The notes under the pieces are model-generated. The model saw nothing but the letters and a program-made list of their open reading frames with translations. It did not search any database and was not told where the DNA came from. A program made the translations under genes and the position numbers. Shown here in pieces: positions 32,800-49,564 of a stretch of DNA of 64,000 nt. Numbering within the stretch: the first letter of the stretch is position 1; each line of letters starts with the position of its first letter. The stretch is from Microbacteriaceae bacterium (GTDB lineage: Bacteria; Actinomycetota; Actinomycetes; Actinomycetales; Microbacteriaceae): assembly GCA_004297935.1 (NCBI GenBank), contig SCRE01000004.1:28357-92356 (forward strand), in the 5' to 3' direction.

Positions 32800-33005
32800 G
32801 CTCGCTGCGCCTCCACCAAATCACTGACGGGGCCGCTCGCGACGACGGGCTGCGGCAACGGCGTGCGAGGAGCCGTTGGAGCCGTCAAAAGGTGTTCAGC
32901 CAGTAGCTGTTCGAACGCCGACGCACGATCGACCGGAACGATGCGGGCAATTGCATGCCCGTGATCGGTGACGGTCAACGTCGCACCATCGCAGACGGCA
33001 TAAAG
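32796..33005 (-). pseudogene. 5'-truncated Phd/YefM family antitoxin
   Basis: AVCDGATLTVTDHGHAIARIVP core is present; in-frame TAG at 33021-33023 and no N-terminal DNA-binding segment; TTG at 32978 could start a 60-aa product. Confidence 0.75.
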
Positions 33006-33295
33006 CTGCCACTGATCGGGCTAACGATGAATCTGGCGTTGGTGTTGGCTGCACGCTTTACATCTTTTGGACCCAGGACTGTGCCGATACCGAAATGAAT
33101 GCCATCCTGCTGCAAGTTTCATTCATCCACTGCACCGTACCTGGTTCGTTCGGTGTCGAAAGCGATACTTCGATGACGCGTAGGCCACCGTCGAGCAGGC
33201 GTTCAGCTTCACGCTTGGCATCGTCTTTCGACCGCTCACGTATGGTCGCGATGATTCTTGACGCACGGATGGATGGCCTCTGCGGTGTCCGGCAA
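32975..33295 (-). pseudogene. KDPG/KHG aldolase (Eda-like) pseudogene with two frameshifts and a 3' truncation
   Basis: TTG-PDTAEAI, 4-bp duplication (ggatggatgg 33267-33276), IRASRIIATIR...LLDGGLRVIEVSLSTP, shift near 33105-33115, FGIGTVLGPKDVKRAANTNARFIVSP, then homology ends. Confidence 0.8.
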
Positions 33296-33305
33296 TGCCG
33301 CTTTG

Positions 33306-34493
33306 TTACCCGTTGAACGCGATCGTGTCCGCCACGGACCTATCACGTGAGGCGAGCAGGGATTGGAACATGCTGCCCTTTCGCAGGCGCCACAGTGCCT
33401 CGGTGTAGTAGCTGTCGCCGACGATGACGGCGGCCTCCTCGCCTACGCCATGTTCATGAGGTACGTCAAGTGCAGCGCCGCGCAGGATCCCAAGCCCGCG
33501 ATGGTTGACCACATACTTGTCCGACAGCTGAGCGACCATTGCCGCCGTGTAGGCCCCTAGCTCCTCCGCGCGCGTGGGATCGCTCCAACTGGCGAGCTCG
33601 AGTAGGCCAGCATATGCAAGGCTCGCGGCGAAACTGTCTCTGACGCGTGGTTGTGTGGCTGGGAGGCTGAAGTCCCAAAGCGGAGACGCATCATCCTGGA
33701 CCTTGCCCATCCAGTAACTCGCCATCGACTGCGCGAGCTCAAGATGGAACGGGTCCTGGGACAGGCTGTACATGAGGGCGTAGCCGTAGATGCCCCACGC
33801 CAGACCACGAGACCAGCAACCGTCTGCGGAGTAACCCTGATAGGTGTCCACGCCGGACGGCTTCCCATCCGGGCCGAACAGGAGCACTTGGATCGTTGAC
33901 CCGTCCGGCCGGACCAGGTGTTGGCCGATGAGCGTCGCGGCACGGACGGCTTCGGCTGCGAGCTGCTCGTCACCCACCTGCCTGGCATACCAGAGCGGCA
34001 CGCACAGGTTGATCACATCGTCGATAGTCGTGAACGGGTATTCGGGGCTGCCCGCCGGGCCGAACGACTTCATATATCCGATCTGTCTGAATCGTTCGGA
34101 GACGGTTCCCCCTGCCTCCAACATCATCGGCCGCAGCTCCTCCATGCCATGCGTCTCGAGTGGGATGAGCACGCCCCGTAAGAACATGTGCGCCACCGAC
34201 GCGAAACTTTTGATCTTTGTCCGATTTGAAAGCCGCTCGCTCCACTGCAATGCGCGCGCACGGTAGGTGTACGAATCAGACGACTGGGACTCGGATGCGG
34301 CGACGAACCAGAGAATCGACGGCAGATCGCCTGCCATCCACGACCCATGGTGAGGCAGCACACCGCGATCGCCCTCGTCGACAGACGCCGTGACCCACTT
34401 CTCACCATTTGTCCACAGCGGGAAGCCGTCCAGCCGGGACATCTCCTTCGCCTTTGCCAGAACCTGAGTCCAGGCATCGCTCAGCTTTGTCAC
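33306..34493 (-). CDS. Glycoside hydrolase family 88 (unsaturated glucuronyl hydrolase-like)
   Basis: WMAGDLPSILW, TIDDVINL, VRPDGST, QGYSADGCWSRGLAWGIYG, RDSFAASL, GDSYYTEAL. Confidence 0.8.
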   Translation of the reverse strand: MTKLSDAWTQVLAKAKEMSRLDGFPLWTNGEKWVTASVDEGDRGVLPHHGSWMAGDLPSILWFVAASESQSSDSYTYRARALQWSERLSNRTKIKSFASVAHMFLRGVLIPLETHGMEELRPMMLEAGGTVSERFRQIGYMKSFGPAGSPEYPFTTIDDVINLCVPLWYARQVGDEQLAAEAVRAATLIGQHLVRPDGSTIQVLLFGPDGKPSGVDTYQGYSADGCWSRGLAWGIYGYALMYSLSQDPFHLELAQSMASYWMGKVQDDASPLWDFSLPATQPRVRDSFAASLAYAGLLELASWSDPTRAEELGAYTAAMVAQLSDKYVVNHRGLGILRGAALDVPHEHGVGEEAAVIVGDSYYTEALWRLRKGSMFQSLLASRDRSVADTIAFNG

Positions 34494-34498
34494 TATTC

Positions 34499-35671
34499 CT
34501 ACTTTCTCAAACGGTTGATGATTTCGTCGGTGTGCTGCCCAAGCCGAGGTGCCGGGCCGCCAGGCCCTACGATCGAACGCGACATCTTGAACGGCGTGTT
34601 TACGACGGCGATGTCTCCTCGTACGAGATCGGGGACCCGCACAAATGAGCCCCGGGAACGAGCCGGTTCGGTCACCGCGACCTCGCGCACCTGCCGGACC
34701 GGACCGGCCGGGACTCCTGCGATCTCCAATGCCTTCAGCGCCTTGTCGGCTCCGCCGACCCGAACCGCCCAGGATTCGATGAGGTGTTTCACCTCGGCTC
34801 GATGGGTGATCCGCAAATCATTGGACGACAGGTCGGAGGATGACGGACTGTCCGCCTGGACGAGCGCAGACAGGCGTTGCCAAAGGCGCTCCGTGCCGGC
34901 GGCGATGGCCAAATATCCGTCCCCCGCGTCATAGACGCCGTACGGTACGACCGCCCGATGCTCCGCACCGTTCCTCGTCGGGTTCACGGATGACCCGCCA
35001 ACCTCCACCTCGACGAACGCAGTCTCGTGGAACGGCAGAGTCGCATCGAACAGGGCGACGTCGACATACTCACCGAGTCCGTCGCCGCGGTCGCGTCGAT
35101 ACAGGGCTGTGACGATCGCCGCATACGCATGAATGCCTGCTGAGACGTCCGCCAGCGAAATCCCCAGGGGAAGCGGTGGCCCACCTAGGACCCCGGTCAT
35201 GTCGATGACTCCTGAGTACCCTTCGGCAATGATGCCCTGGCCCGGCCTCCCCGCGAACGCACCAGTGTTGCCAAAAGCCGAAATCGAAGCCATGATCAGC
35301 CGCGGATTAACTGCAGAGAGTTCGTCGTAACCCAGGCCTTTCGCCGTTAGCGCTCCGGGACGCATGTTCTCCACGAGCACATCCGTGTCGACGGCCAAAG
35401 CGTGAACCATCTCGACGCCTGTCGCCTCACGCAGGTCAGCTGTCACACTGAGCTTGCCAACGTTCAGATTGGCGAAGTACCCGCTGTGTTCATCGCTGAC
35501 GTACGGCGGAAGCTTGCGCGACGGGTCCCCGGCCGGCGGTTCGATTTTGATCACTTCAGCACCGGCATCCGCCAAGAGCCGCGTGCAATAGGGCCCAGCC
35601 AGAATCTGGCTGAGGTCGAGAACTTTCACCCCGGCCAGAGGCGTGCGTGCCGTGTTGTCCGTCATAGTCAT
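34499..35671 (-). CDS. Family III (CaiB/BaiF) CoA-transferase
   Basis: LAGVKVLDLSQILAGP, VIKIEPP, ENMRPG, catalytic Asp in SLADVSAG, APRLGQHT. Confidence 0.93.
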   Translation of the reverse strand: MTMTDNTARTPLAGVKVLDLSQILAGPYCTRLLADAGAEVIKIEPPAGDPSRKLPPYVSDEHSGYFANLNVGKLSVTADLREATGVEMVHALAVDTDVLVENMRPGALTAKGLGYDELSAVNPRLIMASISAFGNTGAFAGRPGQGIIAEGYSGVIDMTGVLGGPPLPLGISLADVSAGIHAYAAIVTALYRRDRGDGLGEYVDVALFDATLPFHETAFVEVEVGGSSVNPTRNGAEHRAVVPYGVYDAGDGYLAIAAGTERLWQRLSALVQADSPSSSDLSSNDLRITHRAEVKHLIESWAVRVGGADKALKALEIAGVPAGPVRQVREVAVTEPARSRGSFVRVPDLVRGDIAVVNTPFKMSRSIVGPGGPAPRLGQHTDEIINRLRK

Positions 35672-35859
35672 CCGAGTTCGCCCGTTCCATGAGCACCGGC
35701 AGGTGTGAAGCCGCCAACGCCCTCGCTCATCGACATGACAAGAGAACTCTGATTGACGGACTGTGAGCTGCCGGCGTCGTCAGGTCCGCTGGATGCCGAT
35801 GACCGTGGCTTGGTATGGCCCGAACGATCATCAAGTTGAACTGCTGTTTCACGCTTCAC
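35668..35859 (-). CDS. 63-aa ORF, possibly an internally deleted gene remnant
   Basis: AAGGAGG before a GTG start; stop overlaps the CoA-transferase ATG (ATGA); no recognisable motif. Confidence 0.35.
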   Translation of the reverse strand: MKRETAVQLDDRSGHTKPRSSASSGPDDAGSSQSVNQSSLVMSMSEGVGGFTPAGAHGTGELG

Positions 35860-36117
35860 GCGTGTCCCTCCTTATACATACATGTGGCCGATGAGCGGAT
35901 TGACACCGGGCAGAGAGTTCATCCGACGGGCGTGACCATCGACGCGAAATGATTCGTGATTCGGCTCAGTTCACGTCCATGTGCGGCGGTGCTTGACCGA
36001 AGTGTGCAAGCCGCGCCATCCGTCATCCGCACATCCGCAGAACCTGAAACGGCGTAGGTCGTCAACCTGCACTCTCGTGATCAAAGCCATCGCGTTCAGC
36101 CTCTGGAATCCGCCTGT

Positions 36118-37617
36118 TCAGTTCCGTAGCCCAAAGGTTCCTGCGCGCTTCCCGGTCCGGATCTGGACTGATTTCAGCTGGGTGAACTCTTCCAAGCCCA
36201 TTCGCCCCATTTCCCGTCCATAACCGGACGCCTTGTAACCGCCGAACGACATCTGCGGCGCCCCATCGATGGAGGTGTTCACCCAAACGGTGCCGCTACG
36301 CAGCTTGCGCATGACGTCAAGGGCTGTGCCGATGTTCGACGTCCAAATCGTGTTCCCAAGTCCGTATGCGACGGCGTTGGCCAGGCGTACAGCGTCGTCT
36401 GTAGTGTCGAACTCGGTCACGGTAAGCACAGGCCCGAAGATCTCTTCACGGAAAGCAGCAGACTCTGGGGTTACATTGCCGAGCACCGTCGCCGACATGA
36501 ACAGCCCGTCGTCGTATCCGGCGCCGCTGAGCCGGCTGCCGCCGGCCAACACGATCGCACCACTCTGCTCGGCAACCTCGACCGCGCGGAGGACCTTGTC
36601 GAGGTGCTGCTCGTGAATCATGGCACCGAAGTCGGAGTCGGTCTCGCCGGCACCCACCTTGAGGCGACGGGTTCGCCCGATCAGCCGCTGGTTGAATTCC
36701 TCTGCGATGCTGGACTGCACGAGCAGGCGCGCCCCGGCCACACAGCACTCCCCCTGATTGTGCGTGGCACCGAACACAACACCCTCAACGGCGTCATCAA
36801 GATCGGCATCGGCGAACACGACCTGGGCTGCCTTCCCGCCAAGCTCTAACGAGGTTTTCTTGAGGTTGCCCTTGGAGGCGTCCAGGATGCGACGGCCGGT
36901 CACGGTCGACCCGGTGAAGGTGATCATGTCGACATCCATATGCTCGGCAAGTGCCTGACCGGCTTCGCCTGTGCCGGTGACGACGTTGAAGACACCCGCG
37001 GGGACACCGGCCTCGAGTGCAAGCTCTGCAAGCCGCAATGCTGAAGCCGAGGTGAACTCCGACGGTTTTGCCACGAGACTGCAGCCCGCAGCGAGTGCGA
37101 ACGCCACTTTCTGGCAGAGGATCAGTAGCGGGAAATTCCACGGCACGATCGCGCCAACAACACCTATGGGCTCGCGCACGAGCAGGCCGGTATAGTCCTC
37201 GCCCAGGTTCGTGTGGATGTCGCCATGCTCTGCTGCGGCGAGGCTGCCTGCGAACTCCATCAACCCGATCGCACCATCGGCGTCATTGAGCGCGACACGC
37301 AACGGTTTGCCGGCCTCGGCCGCGTCGAGCCTGGCAAGTTCTTCACGATGGCCATGCATCAGCTGCGCAAGTGCGAGAAGGGTACGCATGCGGTGCATTC
37401 CGGTGGCACGCGCCCATGTTCCGGCATCGAACACGCGACGCGCGGCGGCAACCGCATCGTCGATCTCATCACGGAAACCAGCTGCATACACCGACACAAC
37501 GGTGCCAGTGGCAGGATTGCGGCGCTCAATCGTCTTGCCGTCATCCCCCAAGACCACCTGGCCATCGATGATGTGACCGTATCGAGTGGACGTTGAAACC
37601 TCATCGAGAACTGTCAT
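36118..37617 (-). CDS. NAD(P)-dependent aldehyde dehydrogenase
   Basis: IVPWNFP, KPSE, FTGST, SLELGGK, NQGECCVAG, EEIFGP. Confidence 0.95.
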   Translation of the reverse strand: MTVLDEVSTSTRYGHIIDGQVVLGDDGKTIERRNPATGTVVSVYAAGFRDEIDDAVAAARRVFDAGTWARATGMHRMRTLLALAQLMHGHREELARLDAAEAGKPLRVALNDADGAIGLMEFAGSLAAAEHGDIHTNLGEDYTGLLVREPIGVVGAIVPWNFPLLILCQKVAFALAAGCSLVAKPSEFTSASALRLAELALEAGVPAGVFNVVTGTGEAGQALAEHMDVDMITFTGSTVTGRRILDASKGNLKKTSLELGGKAAQVVFADADLDDAVEGVVFGATHNQGECCVAGARLLVQSSIAEEFNQRLIGRTRRLKVGAGETDSDFGAMIHEQHLDKVLRAVEVAEQSGAIVLAGGSRLSGAGYDDGLFMSATVLGNVTPESAAFREEIFGPVLTVTEFDTTDDAVRLANAVAYGLGNTIWTSNIGTALDVMRKLRSGTVWVNTSIDGAPQMSFGGYKASGYGREMGRMGLEEFTQLKSVQIRTGKRAGTFGLRN

Positions 37618-37646
37618 CTCTTCTTTTCCTCTCTTTCGACGTAGGT

Positions 37647-38447
37647 TCACTTGCCGCGGTCCAGGAACGCGCGAACGGCTGCGACCTGTTCGACGGTGCC
37701 ACTGCAGGCGGCGACACCGCACCGCTCGGCGCGCATCCCGGCCTCGTTGCCGCCGGCGATGCCGACGTGCAAAGCTTCTTTGATCGCATGAACTGCGCGT
37801 GGCGATCTGCTGCTGAGATCGCGTGCCAGCCCGAGGGCACGTTCACGCAGTTGCTCTGGTACGAGCACTTCCGTCACGAGGCCGTAGCTGAGTGCTGTTT
37901 CGGCGTCGACCGGCTGGCCGACGAGCATCATCGCGGTAGCACGCCCAACGCCGACCACATGCGGTAGGCGCTGAGTGGCACCCCAGCCAGGCGTGTTCGC
38001 GAGGGTGATCTCCGGCTGACCCAGGTAGGCGGTGTTCGCTGCAATGCGGATGTCGCAAGCGAGTGCGAGCTCTAGACCGCCACCGAATGCAGCACCGTTG
38101 ATTGCCGCGATCACCGGCTTAGGCAAGTCCTCTAGCTGGTTGAAAATGAATTGTCCGGTGGCCGAGAATTGGTAGGCGGCTGCCCCCTGCAGACCGTCCA
38201 GTTCACTGATGTCAGCACCGGCGCTGAATGCACGATCGCCGGCGCCGGTGATAATGACCGCCCGAACCGTTGCGTCGTTGTGCAGCCGTGAGACAACGGC
38301 GTTCAGCTCTCGGAAGACCGAAAGGTTCAGCGAGTTGCTCTTGTGCGGCCGGTTCAGGGTGACCGTTGCGACGCCGTCATCGACGGCGCATAGCACTACA
38401 CGCTCCGCGCCGGCACCGCCGGTCATCGTTGTTGGGTTCCAGGCCAC
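37647..38447 (-). CDS. Enoyl-CoA hydratase (crotonase fold)
   Basis: FSAGADI, AAFGGGLELALACD, GQPE (both catalytic Glu present), PGWGATQRL; AGGAGG before GTG. Confidence 0.93.
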   Translation of the reverse strand: MAWNPTTMTGGAGAERVVLCAVDDGVATVTLNRPHKSNSLNLSVFRELNAVVSRLHNDATVRAVIITGAGDRAFSAGADISELDGLQGAAAYQFSATGQFIFNQLEDLPKPVIAAINGAAFGGGLELALACDIRIAANTAYLGQPEITLANTPGWGATQRLPHVVGVGRATAMMLVGQPVDAETALSYGLVTEVLVPEQLRERALGLARDLSSRSPRAVHAIKEALHVGIAGGNEAGMRAERCGVAACSGTVEQVAAVRAFLDRGK

Positions 38448-38544
38448 GTTCAGGACCCTCCTATCCTCTCGCGTCGAAATACCGCATGAGGCGACGGCCC
38501 GGCCAAGCAGCAGCCGTCACCTTTCGGATTCGCCGGCCAGTGCG

Positions 38545-38997
38545 TCATACAGAATCACCGACATTCAGCCGAGCCCCGCTTTGGTGAGGACAGGCGTTCC
38601 GGTATTCAGGTCCCCGAGCTATGACCGCCGCGACAAGGTCGAGGTAGTCGGGCTCTACCGCGTCGGACAGCGGCCGAGGGGTGGCGCCGTCGTAGTGCAG
38701 TTGTTCACAGACGTTTCGATTCAGGAAGTAGGCACCGCGGATGAGGAGAAACAGCAAGTCAAAGGATTCCGGTCTCTGTGCCGACCAGGTTGCGACCACT
38801 TCGGCCGCAGGTGTGCCATTGGCGACCGCGGCCGCGGCTTCGTCGAGGACAGGGATTAGATCGGGCCGGGCTGTGGCCGCGGCGTCGAGGCAGGCGCCGG
38901 GCACACCGGCCTGGGAACCTGAAAGGTATCCTGCGGAGGGCGGGATAAGTGCATCCGCTAGCGCTGCAATCGCAGCAAGTCGTCGATCGTCGGTCAT
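38545..38997 (-). CDS. Gluconate 2-dehydrogenase subunit-3-like small partner protein
   Basis: LAAIAALADALIP, GAYF, LHYDG; ATGA-coupled directly behind the GMC gene; no signal peptide. Confidence 0.7.
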   Translation of the reverse strand: MTDDRRLAAIAALADALIPPSAGYLSGSQAGVPGACLDAAATARPDLIPVLDEAAAAVANGTPAAEVVATWSAQRPESFDLLFLLIRGAYFLNRNVCEQLHYDGATPRPLSDAVEPDYLDLVAAVIARGPEYRNACPHQSGARLNVGDSV

Positions 38998-40601
38998 GCC
39001 GCCGACACCTCCCTGCGTACCTGCACCAGGTGTTCGGTCCATCGCAGGGCGAGAGCTGCGATCGTCGCGGTCGGGTTCATGCCGGCTGAGGTGGGCCACA
39101 CGCTGCCGTCGAAGATGTACAGGTTGTCGATGTCGTGGGTCTTTCCCCACTCATCGACAACGGAGCTTTCGGGGTCGGTCCCCATGACCGCCGTGCCCAG
39201 CAGGTGCCATCCGCTTTGACGGATCTGCGGTGCGACGATCACTTCGGTGGCACCCGCCTCACGGAAGGTGTCCGCCATCCGCTCGTTGTGCCAGCCGAGC
39301 ATCCTTGTGGAGTTCTCACTCGTCCGGTAGACAAGTTTCGCTGCCGGCAGGCCACTGGAGTCGGTCGCGGCCGTGTCGAGGGTGACGCTGTTGCTCTCCT
39401 CTGGCAGATCCTCGCCGCAACTGACCCATAAGAGTGAGCGGCCGAGGCGGCGCTGAAGTTGGGCCTGGAATCCCTCGCCCCAGATGGGCACCGAGCTCCA
39501 CGGGTACGCGCCCGTCGTGCGCTGCGGGCCACCGGTCGGTTGAAGGCCCCATTTCGCACCGCGCAGGAAACCGCGCGCCGCATCGGTCTCGTAGAACTGC
39601 AACGAATAAAGCGTCTGTCCCCACGAACCACGTTCGGTTCCGAGGTCCTCATCGAAGAGGCCGATGACAGAGCTGGCCGGGTGCATCATCAATCGCTTGC
39701 CGACCAGTCCGCTCGAATTGGCAAGACCGCCCACATGCGACGGCGTCTCCGACAGCAGGAGCAGCCGGGGAGTGCCGACGCCATTCGCACAGACGATGAT
39801 GACACCTGCCGGCTGAAACTGCAGCACTCCGCTCTCATCAAAATACTCGACGCCGGTTGCCCGGTCCTGTCGGTCGACCGCGATACGGGATGCGCGCGAG
39901 TTGGTGCGTAGGATGACACCGGCGGTGATCAGGTCGGGCCAATGGGTGACGTCGACGGTTCCCTTCGAACGGTCGAGGTTTCCCCACATGCAATCGCCAC
40001 GCTGGGCCGACGCGTTAAGGTGGCGGTAAGGGCGTGTGGCAATCGCATTCGTCCCCGGCCACCAGTGCCAGCCGAGCCGGTTCATGGCGGCGGCGACCTT
40101 GCGTCCGCCTGCGCCGAGCGGCACTGGCGGTAACGGGTAGCCCTTGGCGTCGGGGTAGGCCGGGTCGCCATCGAGGCCAGAGATACCGAAGTCGGCTTCG
40201 ACCTGTTCATAGAACGGTATGAGGTCTTCGTACGTCATCGGCCAATCGTCGCCGACACCGTCTAGGGTCTTGACCCGGAAGTCGGAAGGCATGTTGCGCA
40301 TCCACTGGGAGGCATAGACGACGGCGCTGCCGCCGACACCGTTCCACATGAGTGCGGAGACGTCCGATTCGGAGTCGTCTACCGGGTAGTCAGCCCGACC
40401 GTTACGGATGTTCGGGTTCCACTGCCAGTCCAGATCCTGCCGGAGTTCAAAATCTGGATGGTTGCCACGTGACTTCGAATGGTCGGGCCACCCGCCCTGT
40501 TCCAAAACGGTGACACTGAACCCGGCCTCGCGCATCCGTTTGGCGGTGACGGCGCCTGATGGGCCGGCGCCGACAACACACACGTCCGCATAATCTGTCA
40601 T
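38994..40601 (-). CDS. GMC family FAD oxidoreductase
   Basis: VVGAGPSG, GVGGS, DDWPMTYEDL, GTPRLLLLS, GWHLLGTAVMG, NPTATIAALA. Confidence 0.92.
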   Translation of the reverse strand: MTDYADVCVVGAGPSGAVTAKRMREAGFSVTVLEQGGWPDHSKSRGNHPDFELRQDLDWQWNPNIRNGRADYPVDDSESDVSALMWNGVGGSAVVYASQWMRNMPSDFRVKTLDGVGDDWPMTYEDLIPFYEQVEADFGISGLDGDPAYPDAKGYPLPPVPLGAGGRKVAAAMNRLGWHWWPGTNAIATRPYRHLNASAQRGDCMWGNLDRSKGTVDVTHWPDLITAGVILRTNSRASRIAVDRQDRATGVEYFDESGVLQFQPAGVIIVCANGVGTPRLLLLSETPSHVGGLANSSGLVGKRLMMHPASSVIGLFDEDLGTERGSWGQTLYSLQFYETDAARGFLRGAKWGLQPTGGPQRTTGAYPWSSVPIWGEGFQAQLQRRLGRSLLWVSCGEDLPEESNSVTLDTAATDSSGLPAAKLVYRTSENSTRMLGWHNERMADTFREAGATEVIVAPQIRQSGWHLLGTAVMGTDPESSVVDEWGKTHDIDNLYIFDGSVWPTSAGMNPTATIAALALRWTEHLVQVRREVSAA

Positions 40602-40660
40602 GCCATTACTCCCTTACAGCCAATCGCCGAACTCATCCCCGCCTGCGCGGATATTCGTAC

Positions 40661-40688
40661 CGGGCTGACGGGCCTACCAGTCAGCCCG
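40661..40688 (-). terminator. Intercistronic hairpin between the ABC permease and GMC genes
   Basis: cgggctgac / gtcagcccg 9-bp stem; no U-tract, so possibly a stabiliser or partial terminator. Confidence 0.5.
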
Positions 40689-40721
40689 CGAGAAGGATCA
40701 TCCACCATGTGCATCCTTGCT

Positions 40722-41672
40722 TCATCCCTTGGTCGAGCCGAGTGTGAGCCCGGCGACGAATTGTTTCTGCAACACGATGAAAATGATCAGCGTCGGCAGC
40801 GCCGCCAGTAACGCTGCAGCCGCGATCATGTTCTGGTTTGCCACGAATTCTCCCTGCAGGTCGGTCAACGCGGACGTTATCGGCCGTAGTTTTCCGGTTG
40901 AGATCAGTGTGATTGCCCAGAAGAAGTCGTTGTAGATCCACGTCGTGAGCAGCGTGGCCAGTGCAGCCAGGGCCGGTTTGATCACCGGCAGTGTCAAGCG
41001 CCAATACCTGGACCACAGTGAGGTGCCGTCTACGATGGCCGCTTCGTACATTTCTTGCGGGATGGTCTTCATATAGTTGCTGAGGACGAAGACGCAGAAT
41101 CCGATTTGGAATGCCGCGTTGATGACGACTAACCCGAAAATGGAGTTGTACATTGTCCCGCTCGCGCTCAAGAAGTTTGGCAACGGGATCATCAGATACA
41201 GGCGATAGAGCGGGGTGATGATCACCTGCTGGGGCAGTAGGTTCCCCGCCGTGAACACCATCAGCAATGCCAGATTCAGTTTGGTGCTCTTACGGGTGAT
41301 GATGAACGCTACAGCCGAGGCAAAGAACAGCGTGATGATGACAGCCGGGACAGTGATCAGGAGGGAGTTCTTGAAATAGACAAGCATGTCCGACTGATTC
41401 CAAGCTTCTATGAAGTTGTTCAGACTCAGGCTATGGGCAATGGAGACGTACCCGTACTTGTTCGTCTCCTGAATCGGACGGAGCCCCACATATAGAGCAA
41501 ACAAGACCGGCAGAAGCCACAGCAGCGCCATGCAAATCATGAACACTTCTGCCACGAGCGTCCAGGGTCTTAGCTTCCGCTTGTGCCGTACGGAAGCAGT
41601 CCGCGGTTTGTTGCTATGCCCATCGGGTGATTGCTCTGCCCTGCGAATCCACTGTCGAGTAGTTCCGGTCAT
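40722..41672 (-). CDS. Carbohydrate ABC transporter permease (MalG-like)
   Basis: EAA motif ([13 protein letters not shown]), WNDF-type IYNDFFW, six TM segments. Confidence 0.93.
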
Positions 41673-42658
41673 TGTGCAGTCTTCTCTCGCTTGAAGGTCT
41701 GCCACAAGAAGATGGTGATCGGCACCAGCGAAACGATCAGGAGCACAACACCGAGCGAGGAGCCGAAGCCGATGCGCTTGACCTCACCCACGATGTTGTT
41801 GGTGATGAGTACTGACAGCAATTCCAGGCCGTTGTAGCCTCGATTTGTGATGTAGACCAGGTCAAATGCGCGCAGTGACTCGATCACCGTCACGATGAGC
41901 ACGACGATGTTGATCGGGCGCATTGTCGGGAATGTGACATGCCAGAATCGTTGCCATGCGTTCACGCCGTCGAGTGATGCCGCTTCCTTCAAGGCCGGGT
42001 CCACGGACTTCAGTCCAGCCAGGTACAGCACCATGACGTATCCGGCTTGCCGCCAGCTTGCCTCCACCAGAACTGCCCAAAGGTTGAGCTTCGGGTTCCC
42101 CAACCAGTCGATGAGATTTGCGTTGGAGGTTCGCCCAAGAAATGAGTTCACCAGACCAAAGTTGGAAGAATACATGAACTCCCAAATAATGCCGATGAGT
42201 GCCAGCGACAACAGTACGGGCAAGAAGAGCGCACTTTGATAGAGACGGCCTCCTTTTAGTCCGCTGTCAAGGATGAGTGCGAACAACATGCCTAGCGGTG
42301 TCGCAATCATCATGAAGACTGCTAGCCAGATGATGTTGTGCAATACCGCCGGCCAGAACGGCGGGTAGATGGTGGCTGCTTGCACGTAGTTGTTCGCCCC
42401 GTTCAAGCAGCCGTTGCTCAGCCCCGGTGACATCGGCGATGACTGGCATGTGCCTAGGTGCAGGCCACCGATTCCGTTCCATTTGGTGAAGGATAAGAAG
42501 ATCGACGCCAAAGCGGGTCCCCAGACGAAGGCCAGGACCGCCAATGTCGGTATCCCGACAAGGGCAGCGGCAATCCACCTATCCGCTTTGGTCAGGCTCG
42601 TCAATCGACGCTTGCGCCCGCCTTGGCGGCGATCTCGAACTGTTAGTGTGCGCGTCAT
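41669..42658 (-). CDS. Carbohydrate ABC transporter permease (MalF-like)
   Basis: [25 protein letters not shown]-type [16 protein letters not shown]. Confidence 0.93.
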
Positions 42659-42665
42659 TGCGTGT

Positions 42666-44000
42666 TCAGGCGAAGATCGACTTGGCCTGTGCTTCAAGGC
42701 TCTTCTGGATCGCCTTGATGTTCGACGTGCTCGGATTCTCGATGAAGTTCTGAACACCGGCAAATGCGGCAGCTGCCATGGCCGGGTCCGTATCCCGATC
42801 CAGGAACTGCGTCACAGCTTTCTTCGAGGCGATGAGCTCGGTGGACTTCTTTTGGATTGCGTTGTATTTCGATGTGTCCACATCTTTGGCCATCCCGACG
42901 TCCCACTTGTCCGTCTCCAGAAAGGTCCCCTCGGCCTTACCCGTGCCGAGATACTCCAGAACTTTCTTTCCACCTGCAGTGTTTTTGGCCTTGGCCGCGC
43001 ACATGTAACCGTCTGCAGGGGCTTCCATGTAGTCGGTACCGAATTTCGGGTTGATCGCCGGGAATTCGAAGAAATCCAGATCCGGCAGATTCTCGGGCGC
43101 GTAGTTCGCCCCAACCTGGTTCGACCCTTGGAACATCATTCCGGCGTTCTTGTTCTCCAGGTCCTTTGCGGCATCTTGCCAGATTCGTCCGTTGGCGCCG
43201 TTCTGGCAGTACGGAAGCAGCTCGGCATATTGTTGGAAGACTGTGGTCACCCCAGGGTCCGTCCAGGGAATCTCATGGCGCATGAGGCGTTTGTGGTAGT
43301 CGTACCCATTGATCCTCAGATCGATGGTGTCGAAGAAGCCGCACCCGGGCCAGAGGTCCTTATCGGCAAAAGCGATCGGCACGATCCCGTCTGCCTTCAT
43401 CTGCTTGGCCAACGTGAGGAGGTCATCCCAGGAGGTCGGGGCCGTGTACCCCTTGTCGGAGAAGACACTCTTGTTATGGAAGAAGACCCACGGATAGTTG
43501 TACATCGGCACGAAGTAGTAGTGGCCGTCGAGGCCTTTCGACAGCGCCTTCGCCGCCGGGCCGAAGTTGGCGCCGATCTTCTCCCACACGTCGTCGATCG
43601 GTGTTGCGAGGCCCTGTGCGGCGAAGAATTGCATCCGGTACCCGGCGAACCAGGTGAACACATCGTCCGGAGTCGCCTGGAGATAGTTGCTGATGTTGCT
43701 CTTGAAGGTCTCGTGATCCACGAGGTTCAATGAAATGTTGGTGCCGGTCCGCGCCTCGGCCTCTTTGACCAGGGCCTTCTGGGACTCTTTGACGCCGGGG
43801 TTGGAGTTGTACGAGCCCATGCTGACGTTCTTGCTGGCTCCACCGCCAGCGCCCGACGTGGACTTTCCGCCTGGGGTGCTACAGGCCGCAAGGCTTGACG
43901 CGGTTGCTCCTGCCAGCGCGGCAGCGGCAACACCACCGAGCAAGCTCCTGCGCGTGAGGATAAAGCGTTGCGACGCCTGCCGCAAGGATGGTTCAGCCAT
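42666..44000 (-). CDS. Tat-exported sugar-binding lipoprotein of an ABC transporter
   Basis: TRRSLL twin-arginine motif, LAAC lipobox, family 1 SBP features; no cognate ATPase gene (MsiK-type sharing is common in Actinobacteria). Confidence 0.92.
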   Translation of the reverse strand: MAEPSLRQASQRFILTRRSLLGGVAAAALAGATASSLAACSTPGGKSTSGAGGGASKNVSMGSYNSNPGVKESQKALVKEAEARTGTNISLNLVDHETFKSNISNYLQATPDDVFTWFAGYRMQFFAAQGLATPIDDVWEKIGANFGPAAKALSKGLDGHYYFVPMYNYPWVFFHNKSVFSDKGYTAPTSWDDLLTLAKQMKADGIVPIAFADKDLWPGCGFFDTIDLRINGYDYHKRLMRHEIPWTDPGVTTVFQQYAELLPYCQNGANGRIWQDAAKDLENKNAGMMFQGSNQVGANYAPENLPDLDFFEFPAINPKFGTDYMEAPADGYMCAAKAKNTAGGKKVLEYLGTGKAEGTFLETDKWDVGMAKDVDTSKYNAIQKKSTELIASKKAVTQFLDRDTDPAMAAAAFAGVQNFIENPSTSNIKAIQKSLEAQAKSIFA

Positions 44001-44051
44001 GGTTAGCCTCTCAGAGATAGTTGCGAACTAATTCCCTTGAGCTTGTACCAA

Positions 44052-44088
44052 GCAATTGGCAATAGTTATTGTTGTTTGGCAATGCCAA
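44052..44088. promoter_or_regulatory. Candidate operator upstream of the ABC operon
   Basis: Palindrome ttggcaatgccaa at 44076-44088; half-site ttggcaat 20 bp away at 44056-44063. Confidence 0.5.
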
Positions 44089-44209
44089 TGCTTTGTTAGA
44101 AGAACGAGACTCGAAAACGCTGCGGAGGCGTAAAACAACTGGTCGACAGAATCGAGGCGCAGACGTACCGAATGACGGGCCGTCCCACCTGGCAGTCAGC
44201 GCGCCAGGG

Positions 44210-45109
44210 TCAAGCGACTGGGCCGGGCCGGGCCTGTTCCTTACTGAATGACACGGCTAACCCATCCTTGGCCGCAATCTCGCCTGAGCTCGCAGGCGGG
44301 GTGTATCCCAACCGCGACTCGATCGCTCGCACGGCGGAGCGGAGCGGGCTCAGATGCTGCCGTATCGTCAAATTGTTCAATCGGACCGACATGCCGACGA
44401 TGGTCAGTGCGGCAACCACCCGACTTCGATGGTCATGCACCGGCATGGCAATTGAGCACAGACCGACCTCGCCCTCCTGCCAGCATGTCGCAAATCCACG
44501 GCGTCGCGCCTGCGCAAGCTCGCGGCGCATGAGCTCCGGATCAGTAATCGTGGCGCTTGTCATTTTCGGCAACGGGCCTCTCAGCGTGCGTTCGATGAGG
44601 TCGTTGTCCGCGCTGAAGGCCATCAGTGCCTTCCCTGACGCGGTCGCGTGCAGGGGAAACCGACGCCCTGTATTCGCCGTCACACGAAAGCTTGAAGGTG
44701 CCTCTCCTCTGTCCAGATACAGAACCGATTCGCCCTCCAGGATTCCCAGTAGCACGAACTCATCCGTTTGGGCCGCAAGAAGATCCAAGTAATGGCGGGC
44801 GATTCTGCTCACCTCGACGCTTTGCACAACGCTTGAGCCCAACTCATACAGCGCCCAGTCCAGTCGGTATGCTCCTGAGTCCGGGTCTCGCGCGACGAGG
44901 TGTCGTGTTTCGAGCGTGCCGAGCAGGTGGTAGACCGCCGTCTTGCTCATCCCGCTTCGGTGGGCAATGTCGCCTATGCCAAGACCGCGTTTCGCGGCGC
45001 CAAGTATCTGCAAGATATCCACCGCGTGATCAACTGCCTGTACACGACGTGAGCGCCGGCTCGGCTCAGTTGATTCCGATTCCCGCTCACCCTGATCTTT
45101 ATCCGTCAC
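44210..45109 (-). CDS. IclR family transcriptional regulator
   Basis: VQAVDHAVDIL, GMSKTAVYHLL, PLHATASGKA, SIAMPV; GTG start at 45109 preferred over TTG at 45139. Confidence 0.93.
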   Translation of the reverse strand: MTDKDQGERESESTEPSRRSRRVQAVDHAVDILQILGAAKRGLGIGDIAHRSGMSKTAVYHLLGTLETRHLVARDPDSGAYRLDWALYELGSSVVQSVEVSRIARHYLDLLAAQTDEFVLLGILEGESVLYLDRGEAPSSFRVTANTGRRFPLHATASGKALMAFSADNDLIERTLRGPLPKMTSATITDPELMRRELAQARRRGFATCWQEGEVGLCSIAMPVHDHRSRVVAALTIVGMSVRLNNLTIRQHLSPLRSAVRAIESRLGYTPPASSGEIAAKDGLAVSFSKEQARPGPVA

Positions 45110-45122
45110 CTGATACTCTCGT

Positions 45123-45135
45123 TTGGCAGTACCAA
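45123..45135. promoter_or_regulatory. Second copy of the candidate operator, upstream of iclR
   Basis: ttggcagtaccaa, two mismatches to ttggcaatgccaa. Confidence 0.45.
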
Positions 45136-45330
45136 CCAATGCTAGCCAAAGCCAAGACTAGTTCATAATCTTGCGACATAGCCCGGAGTGTGAGAAACAG
45201 TTCTCAGTGCCGTACACGACCAAAGTCTCGAGCGTTGACGCCGCACTACCGGCTGCATACGAATACCGCACGGTGAGCATTTTGTCGGTAGTCTTGGGCT
45301 CTGCCGAGAGTCTGACAGATCAAAGCTGCC

Positions 45331-45545
45331 GATGATGAGCGCCTCACGCACCGGATCGCGGTGGGGTGCTGACATCGACATTCCCGCCGGGACTTATCGA
45401 CGCGGCGCTTGAGTCGACGGACCGAATGGAGCAACGCCACCGGCTGTTGCCGGCCCGCGTGGTCGTCTATTTCGTGCTGGCGATGTGGCGGAAATCGTGG
45501 CGGGTGCCGACCACAGGGGCGCTCACACAGGTCCGGCCAGGCTGA
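45331..45545 (+). mobile_element. IS4-family transposase N-terminal remnant (frameshifted, internally deleted)
   Basis: DDERLTHRIAVG, shift, VLTSTFPPGLIDAALESTDRMEQRHRLLPARVVVYFVLAM, then WRVPTTGALTQVR*. Confidence 0.75.
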
Positions 45546-45750
45546 CGCTTCCGTATCGACGACCGAGGCCAGGTCTGGTTCACCCGTCGCCACAGGTGAA
45601 TCCCGACCAGAAACCCCGCATCGGCGGCAAAGCACGCTACGGACTACCCGAACTCGACGAAACCGCCTAACCCAGCCCAACCCGATCAACTGGCCAGTGA
45701 GCCACGACGGCCGCAACTCATCCGTCGAGCATGCAAGCCGATGCGCGGCG
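45535..45750 (+). mobile_element. Possible IS110-family transposase C-terminal remnant with part of its non-coding end
   Basis: GQADASVSTTEARSGSPVATGE keeps the QAxxxVxxxxxRxxxxVxTG spacing I recall from actinobacterial IS110 C-termini; followed by gtgagccacgacggccgcaactcatccgtcgagcatg; from memory, not searched. Confidence 0.35.
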
Positions 45751-45754
45751 ACCG

Positions 45755-48700
45755 CTAAGCGCGCTGCAAATGTTCCTCGGACGCGACCCGCTGCCCGATG
45801 ACCGCCGAAACACCGTCTTGCCGCATCGAGACACCGTAGAGGGCATCCGCGATCTCCATGGTGCGCTTCTGGTGCGTGATGACGATCAACTGACTGGCCT
45901 CCCGCAATGACTCGAAGATCGACAGCAGCCGGCCGAGGTTCGCATCGTCCAAGGCGGCTTCAACCTCATCCATGATGTAGAACGGGCTCGGCCGCGCCTT
46001 GAAAATCGCAATCAGCAACGCGACAGCCGCCAACGAACGCTCACCACCGGACAGCAGCGACAATCGCTCGATCTTCTTGCCCGCGGGTTTCACCGAGACC
46101 TCGATGCCCGTGGTCAACATGTTCTCCGGATCGGTCAAGAAGATGCTGCCCGCGCCGCCCGGGAACAACACAGGGAACACGTCCGCGAAAGCGGCCCTCG
46201 TGTCTTCGAACGCGTCCGAAAAGATCGACTCCATCTTGCCGTCGATCTCCTCGATGATCGTCAGGAGATCCTTACGCGTTTTCGTCAAATCCGTGAGCTG
46301 TTCTGTCAAGAACTTGTGCCGCTGCTCGAGCGCAGCAAACTCCTCGAGCGCGAGCGGATTGACCCGACCTAACTGGGCGAACTTACGCTCCGCCCGCTCC
46401 AAGCGCTTCTGCTGCTGCTCACGATTGAACGGGATACCGGTCGGCTCGGGCTCCGCCGAGTCATCTCGGTCTCGATACACTCGTTCCTCGCTACTCGACC
46501 ACCGAGGTGCCGGTGCCGGCGAGTCATCCGACGGGATCGGCACGTCGGGGCCGTACTCCGCGACGAGCACGTCCTCGACCAGCCCGAGTTCGCTGCCGGC
46601 GCGCTCCAGCAGGCCGGAGAGGTGCAGCTTCTTCTCGTAGATCTGCAATTCCAGCCCGTGCACGCTCTCGCTGATCGCCTGCAGCCGCTCCCGCAGTACC
46701 GCCTCCTCGAGGCGCAACGCCGTCAATTCCTGATTCTGCTCGGCCCGCGCCGCCTCGGCGGTGGCGAGCTCGACCCTCGCCTGGGCCACCGACCGGTCGA
46801 CGGAATCCAGCACGGCGGGCAGCGACGCGATCACCGCACGTGCCGCCTCGATCTGTCGATTGCGGATGACGGCACGCCGCGCGGCCGCTTCGGCCGCAGC
46901 CCGCTCGGCCTCCAGCTGGCGCAGGAGCGCGTCCGCGCGCGCCTGCTCGGCTCTCACCCGCTCCTTCGCCGTCTCCAGCGTCAACCGGGCTTCGACCTCG
47001 CTCTCCCGTGCGGCTTCCAGTTCGGCGAACAGCGCGTCCCGCGCGCCGACGTCGAGGATCGGCCGGGGTCTGGCCTGTGCCGTCTCGAGAGCGGCCTTGG
47101 CGCGCTCGGCGGCGGCCTCGGCATCCGCGACGCTCTCGCCTGCCACCGCCAGCGCGACCCGGAGTCGCTCCGATTCCGCAGCGGATGCCTCCACCTGCAC
47201 CCTGAGCCGGTTCAGCTGCTCCGTCTGTGCGGCCAGCGATGCATCGAACTCCCGCAGCGACGCCAGCGCCCGCGCCGACTGATCCTTCGACACCTGATGG
47301 ATGCCGCGCTGCTCGGCCAGCGCGAATTTCGCCCGGTCGATCAGGGAGAGCACCTGGCCGTGCCGCTCCGCGGCCGCGTCCCGATCGGCCACCAGCTCCA
47401 GTCTGCTGCGCTTCGCGCCGGACCCGCCGCGCAGCACGTATCGACTGAGCACGTCGCCTGCCTTCGTGATCACGGTGATCCCGCTCGCGTCCGTACCGGC
47501 ACCCGCGTCCGCCGTGTCGAACCTCGCCCACACGGCGCGAGCGACCTCGAGGTCATCGGCGATCACGACGTGCGAGAGCAATCCGAGCACCCCGGACGGC
47601 GCCGTCACGACGCTACGGGCGCCGACGGCGCCACCCGGCAACGCCCCATTCGCGACACCGGCAACAACGGATGCTCCCGGACCGGCCGATGCCCCTGGAC
47701 CAGCAGACGCTCCTGGACCAGCAGACGCTCCTGGACCAGCAGACGCTCCCGTCCCAACTGTGCCTCCGTCTGCATCCTCTGCCAGCAGCAGTTCGACGCG
47801 GCCCAGCTCGGCGGTTCTGGCTCGCTCCAGCGCATCGATGCCGGCGTCGCGATTCTCGGCGAGCACGGCGTCGGCGAGCGTGCCCAGCGCTGCGGCAATT
47901 GCTGCCTCGAAGCCCGGCTTCACCTGCACGTGCTCGGCGACGAGCCCTCGGATGCCGGGCAACCGGGCAGCGACCAGTGCGCTCGAACCGTCCTTCTGAT
48001 CGAGCGCGGACGACAACGCGCTGGTTCGGGCGGCCAGTGCGTCCCGTTCCCGTTCGAGCGTGTGCAGTTCCTCGCGCAGTCGTTCGATCTCGCCCTCCGC
48101 CTCGAACACCTCTGCCTGAGCATGTTCGTACGCCTCGTCGAGGTCGTTCTCGCCGGCATCAGACACGGCGGCTTCAGCCTCGGCCGCGGCGAACTGTCCG
48201 CGCGCCGCATCGTGCCGCTCGGTGGCCGCGTCGAGCGCATTGCTCTGGCGCAGCACCGCACCGCGCACCGCCGCCAGTCGCGAGGCAGCGGCGTCCGCCT
48301 GTCCGGAAAGCTTCGTGATCTCCAGGTCGTGTTTGGAGACCAGGGCGCTCTGGGCGGCGATCTCCTCGTCGAGCGCGTCGAGCCGGGTGCGCGCTGTCAG
48401 GGTCGCGGCACGCGCGGCATTCCATGCGGCATCCGATTCCTCGACCGTTTCGAGAAGCCGCGCTGATTCCTCCCGTGCGGCGTCCACCAGTTGCTGGCTC
48501 ACGGTCACGGCCGGGTCGCCGGACTCCGCCTGCGAGCCGAGCAGCGCGAGCCGCTGATTGGCCAGTGTGTACAGGCCGCGCAGCCGTTCCTGCACGGATT
48601 CGAGACCGAATGTCGTGCGGCGCGCGCCGTCGACGGCGTCGGACACCTGCGCCTGCTCGAGACGGCCGATGCGCAACTGCTTCTGCTCCAACTGCTCCTG

Positions 48701-49474: not shown

Positions 49475-49564
49475 CCGGCGCCCCTCCCCGTCCGCTGCCC
49501 GCGACACCTGGTAATACGGTACCGGACTCGGCCGGTGCAGCCGCGCAACGCCGCGACCCCGCAG

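Follow-up and report, generated by a model that had tools for sequence, protein, structure and literature searches.

A 64,000-nucleotide stretch of contig SCRE01000004.1 from a Microbacteriaceae bacterium (GenBank assembly GCA_004297935.1; the whole stretch is referred to as the window) contains, at positions 33306-45139, ten intact co-oriented genes on the minus strand, which follow each other with short gaps or overlaps according to the list of open reading frames (ORFs) and the Pfam matches. We propose that these genes form an IclR-controlled operon for a cytoplasmic, coenzyme A (CoA)-dependent oxidative pathway that opens a monosaccharide-sized pyranose ring without a polysaccharide lyase, a reading that we consider evenly poised when taken as a whole. 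Its general chemical scheme is probable. The assignment of a ring-locked 1,5-anhydro-hexitol, in the galacto or gluco configuration, as the substrate is tentative. The operon is real, conserved and apparently undescribed, and literature combining family GH88 or unsaturated glucuronyl hydrolase (UGL) with CoA-transferase, crotonase or anhydroglucitol yielded no description of such a pathway.

The original prediction, made from the sequence of the window alone, had listed an IclR regulator, a sugar ABC importer, a GMC oxidoreductase with a small subunit, an enoyl-CoA hydratase, an aldehyde dehydrogenase, a CoA-transferase, a GH88 enzyme and a broken aldolase as one unit, and this inventory holds: all the named genes lie on the minus strand, as does every long family-matched ORF between 33306 and 45139. 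The lack of a polysaccharide lyase that it had remarked on is likewise confirmed for the genes of the cluster, none of whose proteins matches a lyase family. It had further proposed that an imported glycoside is oxidized at C6, activated with CoA, dehydrated and finally cleaved by GH88. The lyase-free series from alcohol to acid, CoA ester, 4,5-elimination and hydration by GH88 gains support from its recurrence in two modules, and the glycoside is the part that lacks such support.

Conservation of the gene set

The gene set of the window is syntenic in other Microbacteriaceae. The same ten genes occur in the same order in Microbacterium soli (L001), with 61-81% identity per protein. Metagenomic loci L007/L008 and L111 contain genes for an IclR regulator, ABC importer, crotonase, aldehyde dehydrogenase, CoA-transferase, GH88, Eda-type aldolase, DGOK-family kinase and GMC enzyme, the last being BetA-like and unrelated to the GMC enzyme of the window. 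In Leifsonella bigeumensis and a Terrimesophilobacter metagenome-assembled genome (MAG), the CoA-transferase, GH88, Eda and DGOK genes are accompanied by a second crotonase gene and a DHDPS-family gene. Intact copies with the aldolase, which the original prediction had thought worth finding, therefore exist, with GH88, Eda and DGOK-family kinase genes adjacent in this order (L002/L012, L009, L010 and L014). The co-occurrence of the cluster genes is not due to chance, given that M. soli preserves their order and that several metagenomic loci contain the set again.

Individual components are conserved to different extents. IclR orthologues with 51-73% identity stand beside the same transporter in L001, L003, L004, L005 and L007, the CoA-transferase is 62-73% identical in L001, L002 and L007, and the adjacency of family III transferase and crotonase is preserved among the related loci. 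A LacI-regulated locus (L110, 5494-13216) combines a different binding protein, two permeases and a MalK-type ATPase with a family III CoA-transferase, a window-type GH88 and a crotonase, and has no oxidation genes, kinase or aldolase. This make-up suggests that an acidic substrate is imported ready-made, and, since only the ABC importer and the trio of CoA-transferase, GH88 and crotonase are kept, it points to that trio as the core of the system. Among the cluster genes of the window and 18 related loci we found no KduI, KduD, DhuI/DhuD or polysaccharide lyase.

Four variant loci (L003, L004/L011, L005/L013 and L109), from Rathayibacter soli, Parafrigoribacterium mesophilum, an Actinomycetales MAG and a metagenomic contig (L109), consist of the importer, GH88, a Gfo/Idh/MocA-family gene and a short-chain dehydrogenase/reductase (SDR) gene, with or without Eda. 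The Gfo/Idh/MocA protein is distantly similar to the 1,5-anhydro-D-fructose reductase AFR (PDB 2GLX, E=2e-27) and is not an AFR orthologue; we reached no specific assignment for it or for the SDR of these loci. The three genomes in this group (R. soli, P. mesophilum and the Actinomycetales MAG) also carry the second module described below, which lies directly alongside the variant locus in P. mesophilum. In L109, the CUT2 importer genes of the second module stand beside the variant locus.

Searching the genome of the window with the cluster proteins revealed this second, paralogous set on another contig (C41:404000-423900, L089). Genes for an aldehyde dehydrogenase, an iron-containing alcohol dehydrogenase (Fe-ADH), a crotonase and a family I CoA-transferase lie on one strand, followed by genes for an IclR regulator, GH88, a second IclR regulator and a CUT2 ABC importer, and then by SDR and alpha/beta hydrolase genes. 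The same set is present in P. mesophilum, in L. bigeumensis, where a KDPG-type aldolase and a PfkB kinase follow, and as a single operon in the Actinomycetales MAG. A plasmid of Arthrobacter sp. D3-18 carries it with Eda, PfkB, an MFS sugar transporter and a HAD phosphatase, Allosalinactinospora lopnorensis has the single operon GH88-CoA-transferase-crotonase-Fe-ADH-aldehyde dehydrogenase-Eda-PfkB, and in Embleya sp. a BetA-like GMC enzyme takes the place of Fe-ADH. The second module is thus found in seven genomes, including that of the window, from at least four actinobacterial families.

The aldehyde dehydrogenases (55% identity) and crotonases (47.5%) of the two modules are paralogous, and their GH88 proteins share only 28% identity. 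For the alcohol-oxidizing enzyme, the CoA-transferase (family III versus family I) and the kinase (DGOK versus PfkB), the two modules use members of unrelated families. Different proteins have therefore come to fill the same slots repeatedly, which is the strongest evidence that alcohol oxidation, aldehyde oxidation, CoA transfer, crotonase, GH88, kinase and aldolase make up one pathway. The slot for alcohol oxidation is occupied by three unrelated enzymes (a glucose dehydrogenase-like GMC enzyme, a BetA-like GMC enzyme and Fe-ADH), always beside the aldehyde dehydrogenase. A GMC flavoenzyme would not serve as a reductase, and this arrangement supports the conversion of a primary alcohol to an aldehyde and on to an acid.

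In Arthrobacter and Allosalinactinospora, the second module comes with genes for an MFS sugar transporter and a phosphatase of the Cof-type HAD group, Hydrolase_3 (L099, 12518-13396; L101, 18518-18760), and one may speculate that the phosphatase rescues adventitiously phosphorylated sugar analogues. In a Paralcaligenes MAG (L100), a GH88 closely related to the canonical one of the second module (61-63% identity) adjoins UxuA and a mannitol-dehydrogenase-family gene, with a family III CoA-transferase gene and a crotonase fragment a few kb away. A Streptosporangiales locus (L083), in which a crotonase and a family III transferase lie close to GH88, was set aside as a different system, as it also contains acyl-CoA dehydrogenase, TRAP and LacI genes, and a homologue of the family I transferase on a rhizobial plasmid belongs to a polyhydroxyalkanoate locus.

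Enzymes of the proposed pathway

In the proposed pathway, the substrate would be taken up by the AcbH-like ABC system, after which the flavin-dependent GMC enzyme would turn its exocyclic CH2OH group into an aldehyde and the aldehyde dehydrogenase would turn the aldehyde into a carboxylate, giving a uronate-type acid. The family III CoA-transferase would form the thioester, from which the crotonase would strip H5 and the 4-OH group to leave a 4,5-unsaturated cyclic enol ether, and a further molecule of substrate would then receive the CoA, in the manner of the carnitine cycle of CaiB and CaiD. The GH88 homologue would then hydrate C5, with collapse of the hemiketal and opening of the ring. In the intact relatives, the DGOK-family kinase and the Eda-type aldolase would convert the resulting 2-keto-3-deoxy acid into pyruvate and a triose phosphate.

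The nearest solved relatives of the GMC enzyme are the large subunits of the FAD-dependent glucose and fructose dehydrogenases (E about 1e-55), which are members of heterotrimeric complexes. Unlike these complexes, the window cluster has neither a homologue of the small subunit with its Tat signal nor a cytochrome c subunit. The 150-amino-acid ORF next to the GMC gene gives no Pfam match, no PDB match and no signal peptide, and the cluster has no gene for a cytochrome subunit; the GMC enzyme is therefore a cytoplasmic relative and not a member of a membrane complex. The small subunit of the original prediction exists as an ORF, and the label depends on its position, with an ATGA overlap at the GMC stop codon, and on its conservation in M. 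soli, where a counterpart of 62% identity occupies the corresponding position. The aldehyde dehydrogenase scores below every NCBIfam equivalog cut-off.

The crotonase has both motifs with a catalytic Glu (GGGLEL, at residue 122, and QPEITLA), in agreement with what had been read from the sequence before, as well as the oxyanion-hole motif, and matches PF00378 at 194 bits. The CoA-transferase matches PF02515 over its full length (positions 1-366 of 366, 347 bits), and its best solved relatives are found at E-values of about 1e-60; the motif SLADVSAG contains an Asp that we equate, by motif, with D169 of Frc. With 80 bits against a cut-off of 413, it falls far short of the CaiB model of NCBIfam. 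CaiB and CaiD act on a beta-hydroxy acid, which they dehydrate in the form of the CoA ester, and recycle the CoA. In the carnitine system of E. coli the same two families stand side by side as in the window, and by analogy the same logic may apply: the thioester would acidify the alpha-hydrogen, the beta-hydroxyl group would be eliminated and CoA would be handed on. The substrate is carnitine there and a sugar acid in our proposal. A CaiC-like ligase is absent from the window cluster, and in the second module a family I transferase fills this slot.

Characteristic of GH88 enzymes is the hydration of the enol ether at C4=C5 in unsaturated uronates. The GH88 gene of the original prediction is indeed homologous to this family, as residues 39-373 match the UGL of Bacillus sp. 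GL1 (PDB 1VD5/2AHF) with E=1e-33 in a phmmer search. It is atypical and fails the family profile, with no match in Pfam (including PF07470) or NCBIfam even at E=10. Its relatives form a distinct Microbacteriaceae clade of 47-75% identity, with members in Terrimesophilobacter, M. soli, L. bigeumensis, R. soli and P. mesophilum, and after a gap the ordinary GH88 proteins follow at 34% identity or less. The precomputed PF07470 match is missing throughout the window-type clade and present in the relatives at or below 34% identity. The clade is rare in species-representative genomes, where the 580 GH88 relatives include 6 loci with more than 50% identity, and most of the 80 GH88 loci that we retrieved are ordinary contexts without CoA enzymes.

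Aligned with UGL and canonical GH88 proteins, the clade retains the equivalents of D149 and of the residues that bind the carboxylate and the ring, W42, Q211, W219, R221 and W225; D158, which corresponds to the catalytic Asp149 of UGL, is invariant in 23 clade members. Six changes are equally invariant (F46D, H87A, D88S, W134F, C150D and H193Q), so that the window enzyme differs from UGL (1VD5) by a Ser (Ser99, throughout the clade) in place of Asp88 and by five further active-site changes, in addition to failing the Pfam model. As judged from this alignment, the catalytic acid and the putative carboxylate-binding site are kept and the sugar-recognition side is remodelled. The earlier statement that GH88 acts only on unsaturated uronyl residues is not simply transferable to a protein that misses the equivalent of Asp88, and standard unsaturated uronyl hydrolase activity should not be assumed for it. 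In annotation, members of the window-type clade should not be called 'unsaturated chondroitin disaccharide hydrolase'. The GH88 protein of the second module retains every canonical UGL residue.

The end of the pathway is damaged in the window. Using tblastn, we found that the Eda-type aldolase is a frameshifted, truncated stub in two frames, comprising residues 9-64 (33273-33106) and 61-95 (33118-33014) of 208 amino acids, with 60% identity to the Terrimesophilobacter orthologue (L009); the broken aldolase of the original prediction is thus real. The homology stops at about 33014, where the 3' end of the operon adjoins a toxin-antitoxin-like region. There is no DGOK homologue anywhere in the genome of the window, which does contain a PfkB/Eda pair on another contig (C39). 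Compared with the intact relatives, the window copy has lost its kinase and half of its aldolase to a deletion, and its pathway is either decaying or dependent on the C39 pair. The M. soli copy likewise lacks kinase and aldolase, since a divergent homoprotocatechuate-type set stands in place of Eda and DGOK directly past the syntenic operon (L001, 11239-19850); this set comprises an HpcH/HpaI aldolase, an FAA hydrolase, a glyoxalase-fold dioxygenase, an aldehyde dehydrogenase and a GntR regulator.

The aldolases of both modules have Thr or Ser where Eda of E. coli has T161 and DgoA has V154. We take Thr or Ser at this position to mark a KDPG-type aldolase and Val a KDPGal-type aldolase; the residues found suggest that the products of both modules are 4S. 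The resemblance to the De Ley-Doudoroff pathway of E. coli (DgoK/DgoA) lies in the DGOK-family kinase and Eda-family aldolase directly 3' of GH88 in the intact relatives. It is limited by the kinase, which is only 27-34% identical to DgoK, by the Thr in place of the Val of DgoA, and by the loss or breakage of both genes in the window.

Compared with the classical route (lyase, GH88/GH105, KduI/KduD or DhuI/DhuD, KdgK and Eda), the proposed pathway would use a homologous (alpha/alpha)6 enzyme and would likewise end in a keto-deoxy-acid kinase and an Eda-type aldolase. The window cluster differs in having no lyase, KduI or KduD and in its importer of the monosaccharide type, and its unsaturated substrate would arise inside the cell, via a CoA thioester.

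Substrate and competing explanations

The solute-binding protein is 61% identical to AcbH of Actinoplanes over the whole mature protein (E=1e-175) and matches the AcbH structure PDB 3OO6 with E=1e-164. As cited in PMC8233162, Licht et al. (2011) reported that AcbH binds beta-D-galactopyranose and prefers it exclusively. In the AcbH variants of the PDB, the D and R of FMDRDT are the sole departures from the wild type; the window protein keeps both residues, and the corresponding QFLDRDT is retained in all eight AcbH-like orthologues. By its high identity and by the D and R probed in AcbH of Actinoplanes sp. SE50/110, the window protein is a predicted galactose-binding protein of the AcbH type; AcbH sits in an acarbose cluster and the window protein in a catabolic operon. 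Binding proteins of the AcbH type are 75-81% identical to that of the window, whichever cluster variant they belong to. The second module uses either a CUT2 importer with a binding protein related to XylF/ChvE or an MFS transporter (Sugar_tr). Because both importers are of monosaccharide types, import of a di- or oligosaccharide or of a bulky aryl glycoside is unlikely.

We hypothesize that the substrate is a 1,5-anhydro-hexitol. It is the most economical candidate, because hydration by GH88 would yield a 2-keto-3-deoxyhexonate directly and each encoded enzyme would be used once. A glycoside or a free aldose would instead give a 4-deoxy-5-keto-uronate with an aldehyde at C1, which would need an isomerase and/or a reductase before the kinase, and the complete operons L007, L111, L101, L105 and L097, each with kinase and aldolase, contain no such enzyme (KduI/KduD or DhuI/DhuD). 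Hydrolases cannot open such cyclic ethers, which would also explain why the route is so elaborate and GH88 invariant. The two modules, of which the second is widespread in Actinomycetota, could accordingly degrade 1,5-anhydroglucitol, -galactitol or -mannitol by a pathway that tolerates oxygen and depends on CoA, a proposal that we advance with some reserve.

In the free-hexose alternative, which we regard as unlikely, D-galactose is imported, oxidized at C6 to D-galacturonate and dehydrated as the CoA ester; GH88 would linearize the unsaturated monouronate in the manner of KdgF to 4-deoxy-L-threo-5-hexosulose uronate, and an unlinked reductase would form 2-keto-3-deoxyhexonate. The 61-66% identity of the binding protein to the galactose-specific AcbH, with the D/R pair kept, fits this route, as does the KDPG-like Thr or Ser at the position of Eda T161, which is compatible with a 4S product such as 2-keto-3-deoxy-L-galactonate; the reduction could be supplied by the SDR and Gfo/Idh/MocA genes of the variant loci. 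Yet the five complete operons encode neither reductase nor isomerase, GH88 is invariant although a free unsaturated uronate opens spontaneously, and an eight-step CoA route has no obvious rationale for galactose, which ordinary pathways handle. The glycoside scheme of the original prediction, in which a neutral glycoside, be it a disaccharide or an aryl or alkyl glycoside, is imported, oxidized at C6, CoA-activated and dehydrated before GH88 releases the aglycone and 4-deoxy-5-keto-uronate, has a slim chance. It employs the same conserved enzymes, the characterized GH88 enzymes all cleave glycosides, as their PDB names indicate, and methyl galactoside can pass importers of the galactose type such as Mgl of E. 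coli. The importers of monosaccharide types nevertheless speak against a glycoside that is cleaved from an aglycone by GH88, the cluster encodes nothing that would process an aglycone, the released keto-uronate would need steps of the KduI/KduD type for which no complete operon has a gene or an equivalent, and an ordinary glycosidase would be far cheaper. The transporters also make it unlikely that the CoA enzymes degrade the aglycone, which the original prediction had offered as its alternative.

GH88 could also take the first step, its substrates being unsaturated uronides or monouronates that lyases have released and that are then imported, with the oxidation and CoA enzymes serving a separate or downstream purpose; we think this very improbable. 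Variant loci that pair importer and GH88 with only SDR, Gfo/Idh/MocA and Eda resemble processing of the DhuD/KduD type, the second module has a fully canonical GH88, and the Paralcaligenes locus pairs a GH88 of that type with UxuA and a mannitol-dehydrogenase-family gene. On the other hand, the binding protein is of the neutral galactopyranose type, the trio of CoA-transferase, GH88 and crotonase forms an uninterrupted, conserved block of which two non-orthologous versions exist, and no sensible chemistry would lead from 4-deoxy-5-keto-uronate to a kinase substrate by means of alcohol oxidase, aldehyde dehydrogenase, CoA-transferase and crotonase. The least credible alternative, with hardly any weight, is a variant of the De Ley-Doudoroff pathway in which galactose is oxidized at C1 and CoA-transferase and crotonase replace galactonate dehydratase to give 2-keto-3-deoxygalactonate for the DGOK-family kinase and the aldolase. 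A galactose-type importer occurs together with such a kinase and an Eda-family aldolase, and the GMC enzyme of the window is homologous to glucose 1-dehydrogenases. This variant leaves the aldehyde dehydrogenase and the invariant GH88 without a role, however; Fe-ADH of the second module is no hemiacetal dehydrogenase, the kinase is distant from DgoK, and the aldolases carry what is presumably the KDPG-type Thr or Ser and not the KDPGal-type Val.

Several other schemes were discarded for chemical reasons. Action of the aldehyde dehydrogenase on the GH88 product would give 5-keto-4-deoxyglucarate and leave no substrate for the kinase, and a ketose oxidized at C1 would have no alpha-hydrogen for the elimination. 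A route via kojic or comenic acid is ruled out by the sugar importer and the kinase/aldolase end, and degradation of an aglycone by the importers of monosaccharide types.

The 1,5-anhydro-hexitol pathway has to be weighed against a number of contrary observations. Its GH88 enzyme in the window is without the second essential Asp, the equivalent of Asp88, the window copy is without kinase and aldolase, and the cluster encodes no CoA ligase or other priming enzyme. The exclusive galactose specificity reported for AcbH keeps free galactose a serious candidate, and a 1-deoxy sugar has no anomeric hydroxyl group, unlike the galactose ligand. In the variant loci no GMC enzyme, aldehyde dehydrogenase, family III CoA-transferase or crotonase gene is adjacent, so that GH88 must there use enzymes encoded elsewhere, or its substrate arises otherwise. 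Derivation by Fischer projection indicates that a gluco or galacto ring would lead to 2-keto-3-deoxy-L-galactonate and hence to L-glyceraldehyde 3-phosphate; only a manno ring would lead to 2-keto-3-deoxygluconate (KDG). The combination of a canonical, gluco-type GH88 with the module that has the KdgK-like kinase, and of a remodelled site with the galactose-type module, is the reverse of the simplest expectation. Finally, gene content and conservation are observed directly, and it is from them that we infer the order of the steps, the CoA cycling, the chemistry and the substrate.

If the substrate is indeed a 1,5-anhydro-hexitol, the pathway would face the same ether-ring problem as anaerobic 'anhydroglycolysis'. 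1,5-Anhydroglucitol and 1,5-anhydromannitol are widespread, and gut anaerobes open both with two epimer-specific glycyl-radical enzymes (PMC13450708). These C-O lyases (YbiW/PflD), which act on 1,5-anhydroglucitol-6-phosphate and 1,5-anhydromannitol-6-phosphate, have no homology to the enzymes discussed here; their route is radical-based and oxygen-sensitive and uses phosphorylated substrates, whereas that of the window would be oxygen-tolerant, CoA-dependent and oxidative. Both strategies would then involve two parallel epimer-specific systems. The substrate class could also match that of the 1,5-anhydro-D-fructose pathway of Sinorhizobium morelense, which has AFR, a Gfo/Idh/MocA protein. That route reportedly goes by C1 oxygenation to mannose, and its later steps are said to be unidentified.

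Should the chemical scheme be true, 4,5-unsaturated uronates would be made by intracellular elimination from a CoA thioester and not by an extracellular polysaccharide lyase, GH88-type enzymes would gain a role in monosaccharide ring opening unrelated to polysaccharide lyases, a widespread, unannotated actinobacterial operon would be explained, and a rare instance of CoA-ester chemistry on an intact sugar ring would be added. With a 1,5-anhydro-hexitol as substrate, the operon would moreover supply the aerobic catabolic route that has been lacking for compounds found throughout food and plants, and be a source of oxygen-tolerant enzymes for 1,5-anhydroglucitol. According to a 2025 review, an oxidative route for 1,5-anhydroglucitol has yet to be described, and oxygen-tolerant enzymes acting on it are needed to lower this metabolite in the neutropenia of G6PC3 deficiency and glycogen storage disease type Ib (PMC12441222). 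The system proposed here would be the aerobic 1,5-anhydroglucitol-degrading system that the review states to be undescribed (PMC12441222).

Layout of the operon and its surroundings

The features of the operon are listed in Table 1.

Table 1. Features of the window operon in the order of transcription (positions in the window).
Feature	Positions	Strand	Basis and remarks
IclR-family regulator, first gene of the unit	44210-45139	-	PF09339 and PF01614; exact start codon uncertain
Solute-binding lipoprotein of CUT1 ABC importer, AcbH-like	42666-44000	-	PF01547, lipobox
ABC permease 1	41669-42658	-	PF00528; start placed at an internal Met just past the stop of the binding protein
ABC permease 2	40722-41672	-	PF00528; likely start overlaps the stop of permease 1
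GMC flavoprotein, cytoplasmic	38994-40601	-	PF00732 and PF05199; proposed oxidation of C6-OH to aldehyde
150-amino-acid partner ORF of GMC, putative small subunit	38545-38997	-	ATG overlaps the GMC stop (ATGA); by position only
Crotonase (enoyl-CoA hydratase/dehydratase)	37647-38447	-	PF00378; proposed 4,5-elimination on uronyl-CoA
NAD(P)-dependent aldehyde dehydrogenase	36118-37617	-	PF00171, 528 bits; proposed oxidation of 6-aldehyde to carboxylate
63-codon ORF in the spacer between aldehyde dehydrogenase and CoA-transferase	35668-35859	-	Putative ribosome-binding site AAGGAGG 7 nt 5' of GTG; stop overlaps the CoA-transferase ATG (ATGA)
Family III (CaiB/Frc-type) CoA-transferase	34499-35671	-	PF02515, full length
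Divergent GH88 homologue, cytoplasmic	33306-34493	-	Match to UGL; proposed ring-opening enol-ether hydratase
Eda-type (KDPG-like) aldolase pseudogene stub	33014-33273	-	Two frames; tblastn with L009 orthologue

The spacer between the aldehyde dehydrogenase and CoA-transferase genes is unusually long, with 447 bp in the window versus 76 bp in M. soli, where the 63-codon ORF is not conserved. No ATPase gene accompanies the importer in the window cluster. The G+C content is 58-63% across the operon block (33000-46000) and 65-70% in the flanking housekeeping DNA, which includes an SMC gene at 45755-49507; the low G+C content of the block suggests horizontal acquisition.

A different combination of sugar and CoA genes occurs on pSymA of Sinorhizobium meliloti (L102/L108), where a GH88-free cluster without a recognizable AFR contains genes for a sugar ABC importer, a zinc-dependent alcohol dehydrogenase, an aldehyde dehydrogenase, a BetA-like GMC enzyme, a family I CoA-transferase and a crotonase, and further for a glycerate kinase, an acyl-CoA dehydrogenase, an SDR, a DHDPS-family protein, a TIM-barrel isomerase and an electron-transfer flavoprotein. 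It appears to represent a different design of a sugar-plus-CoA pathway.

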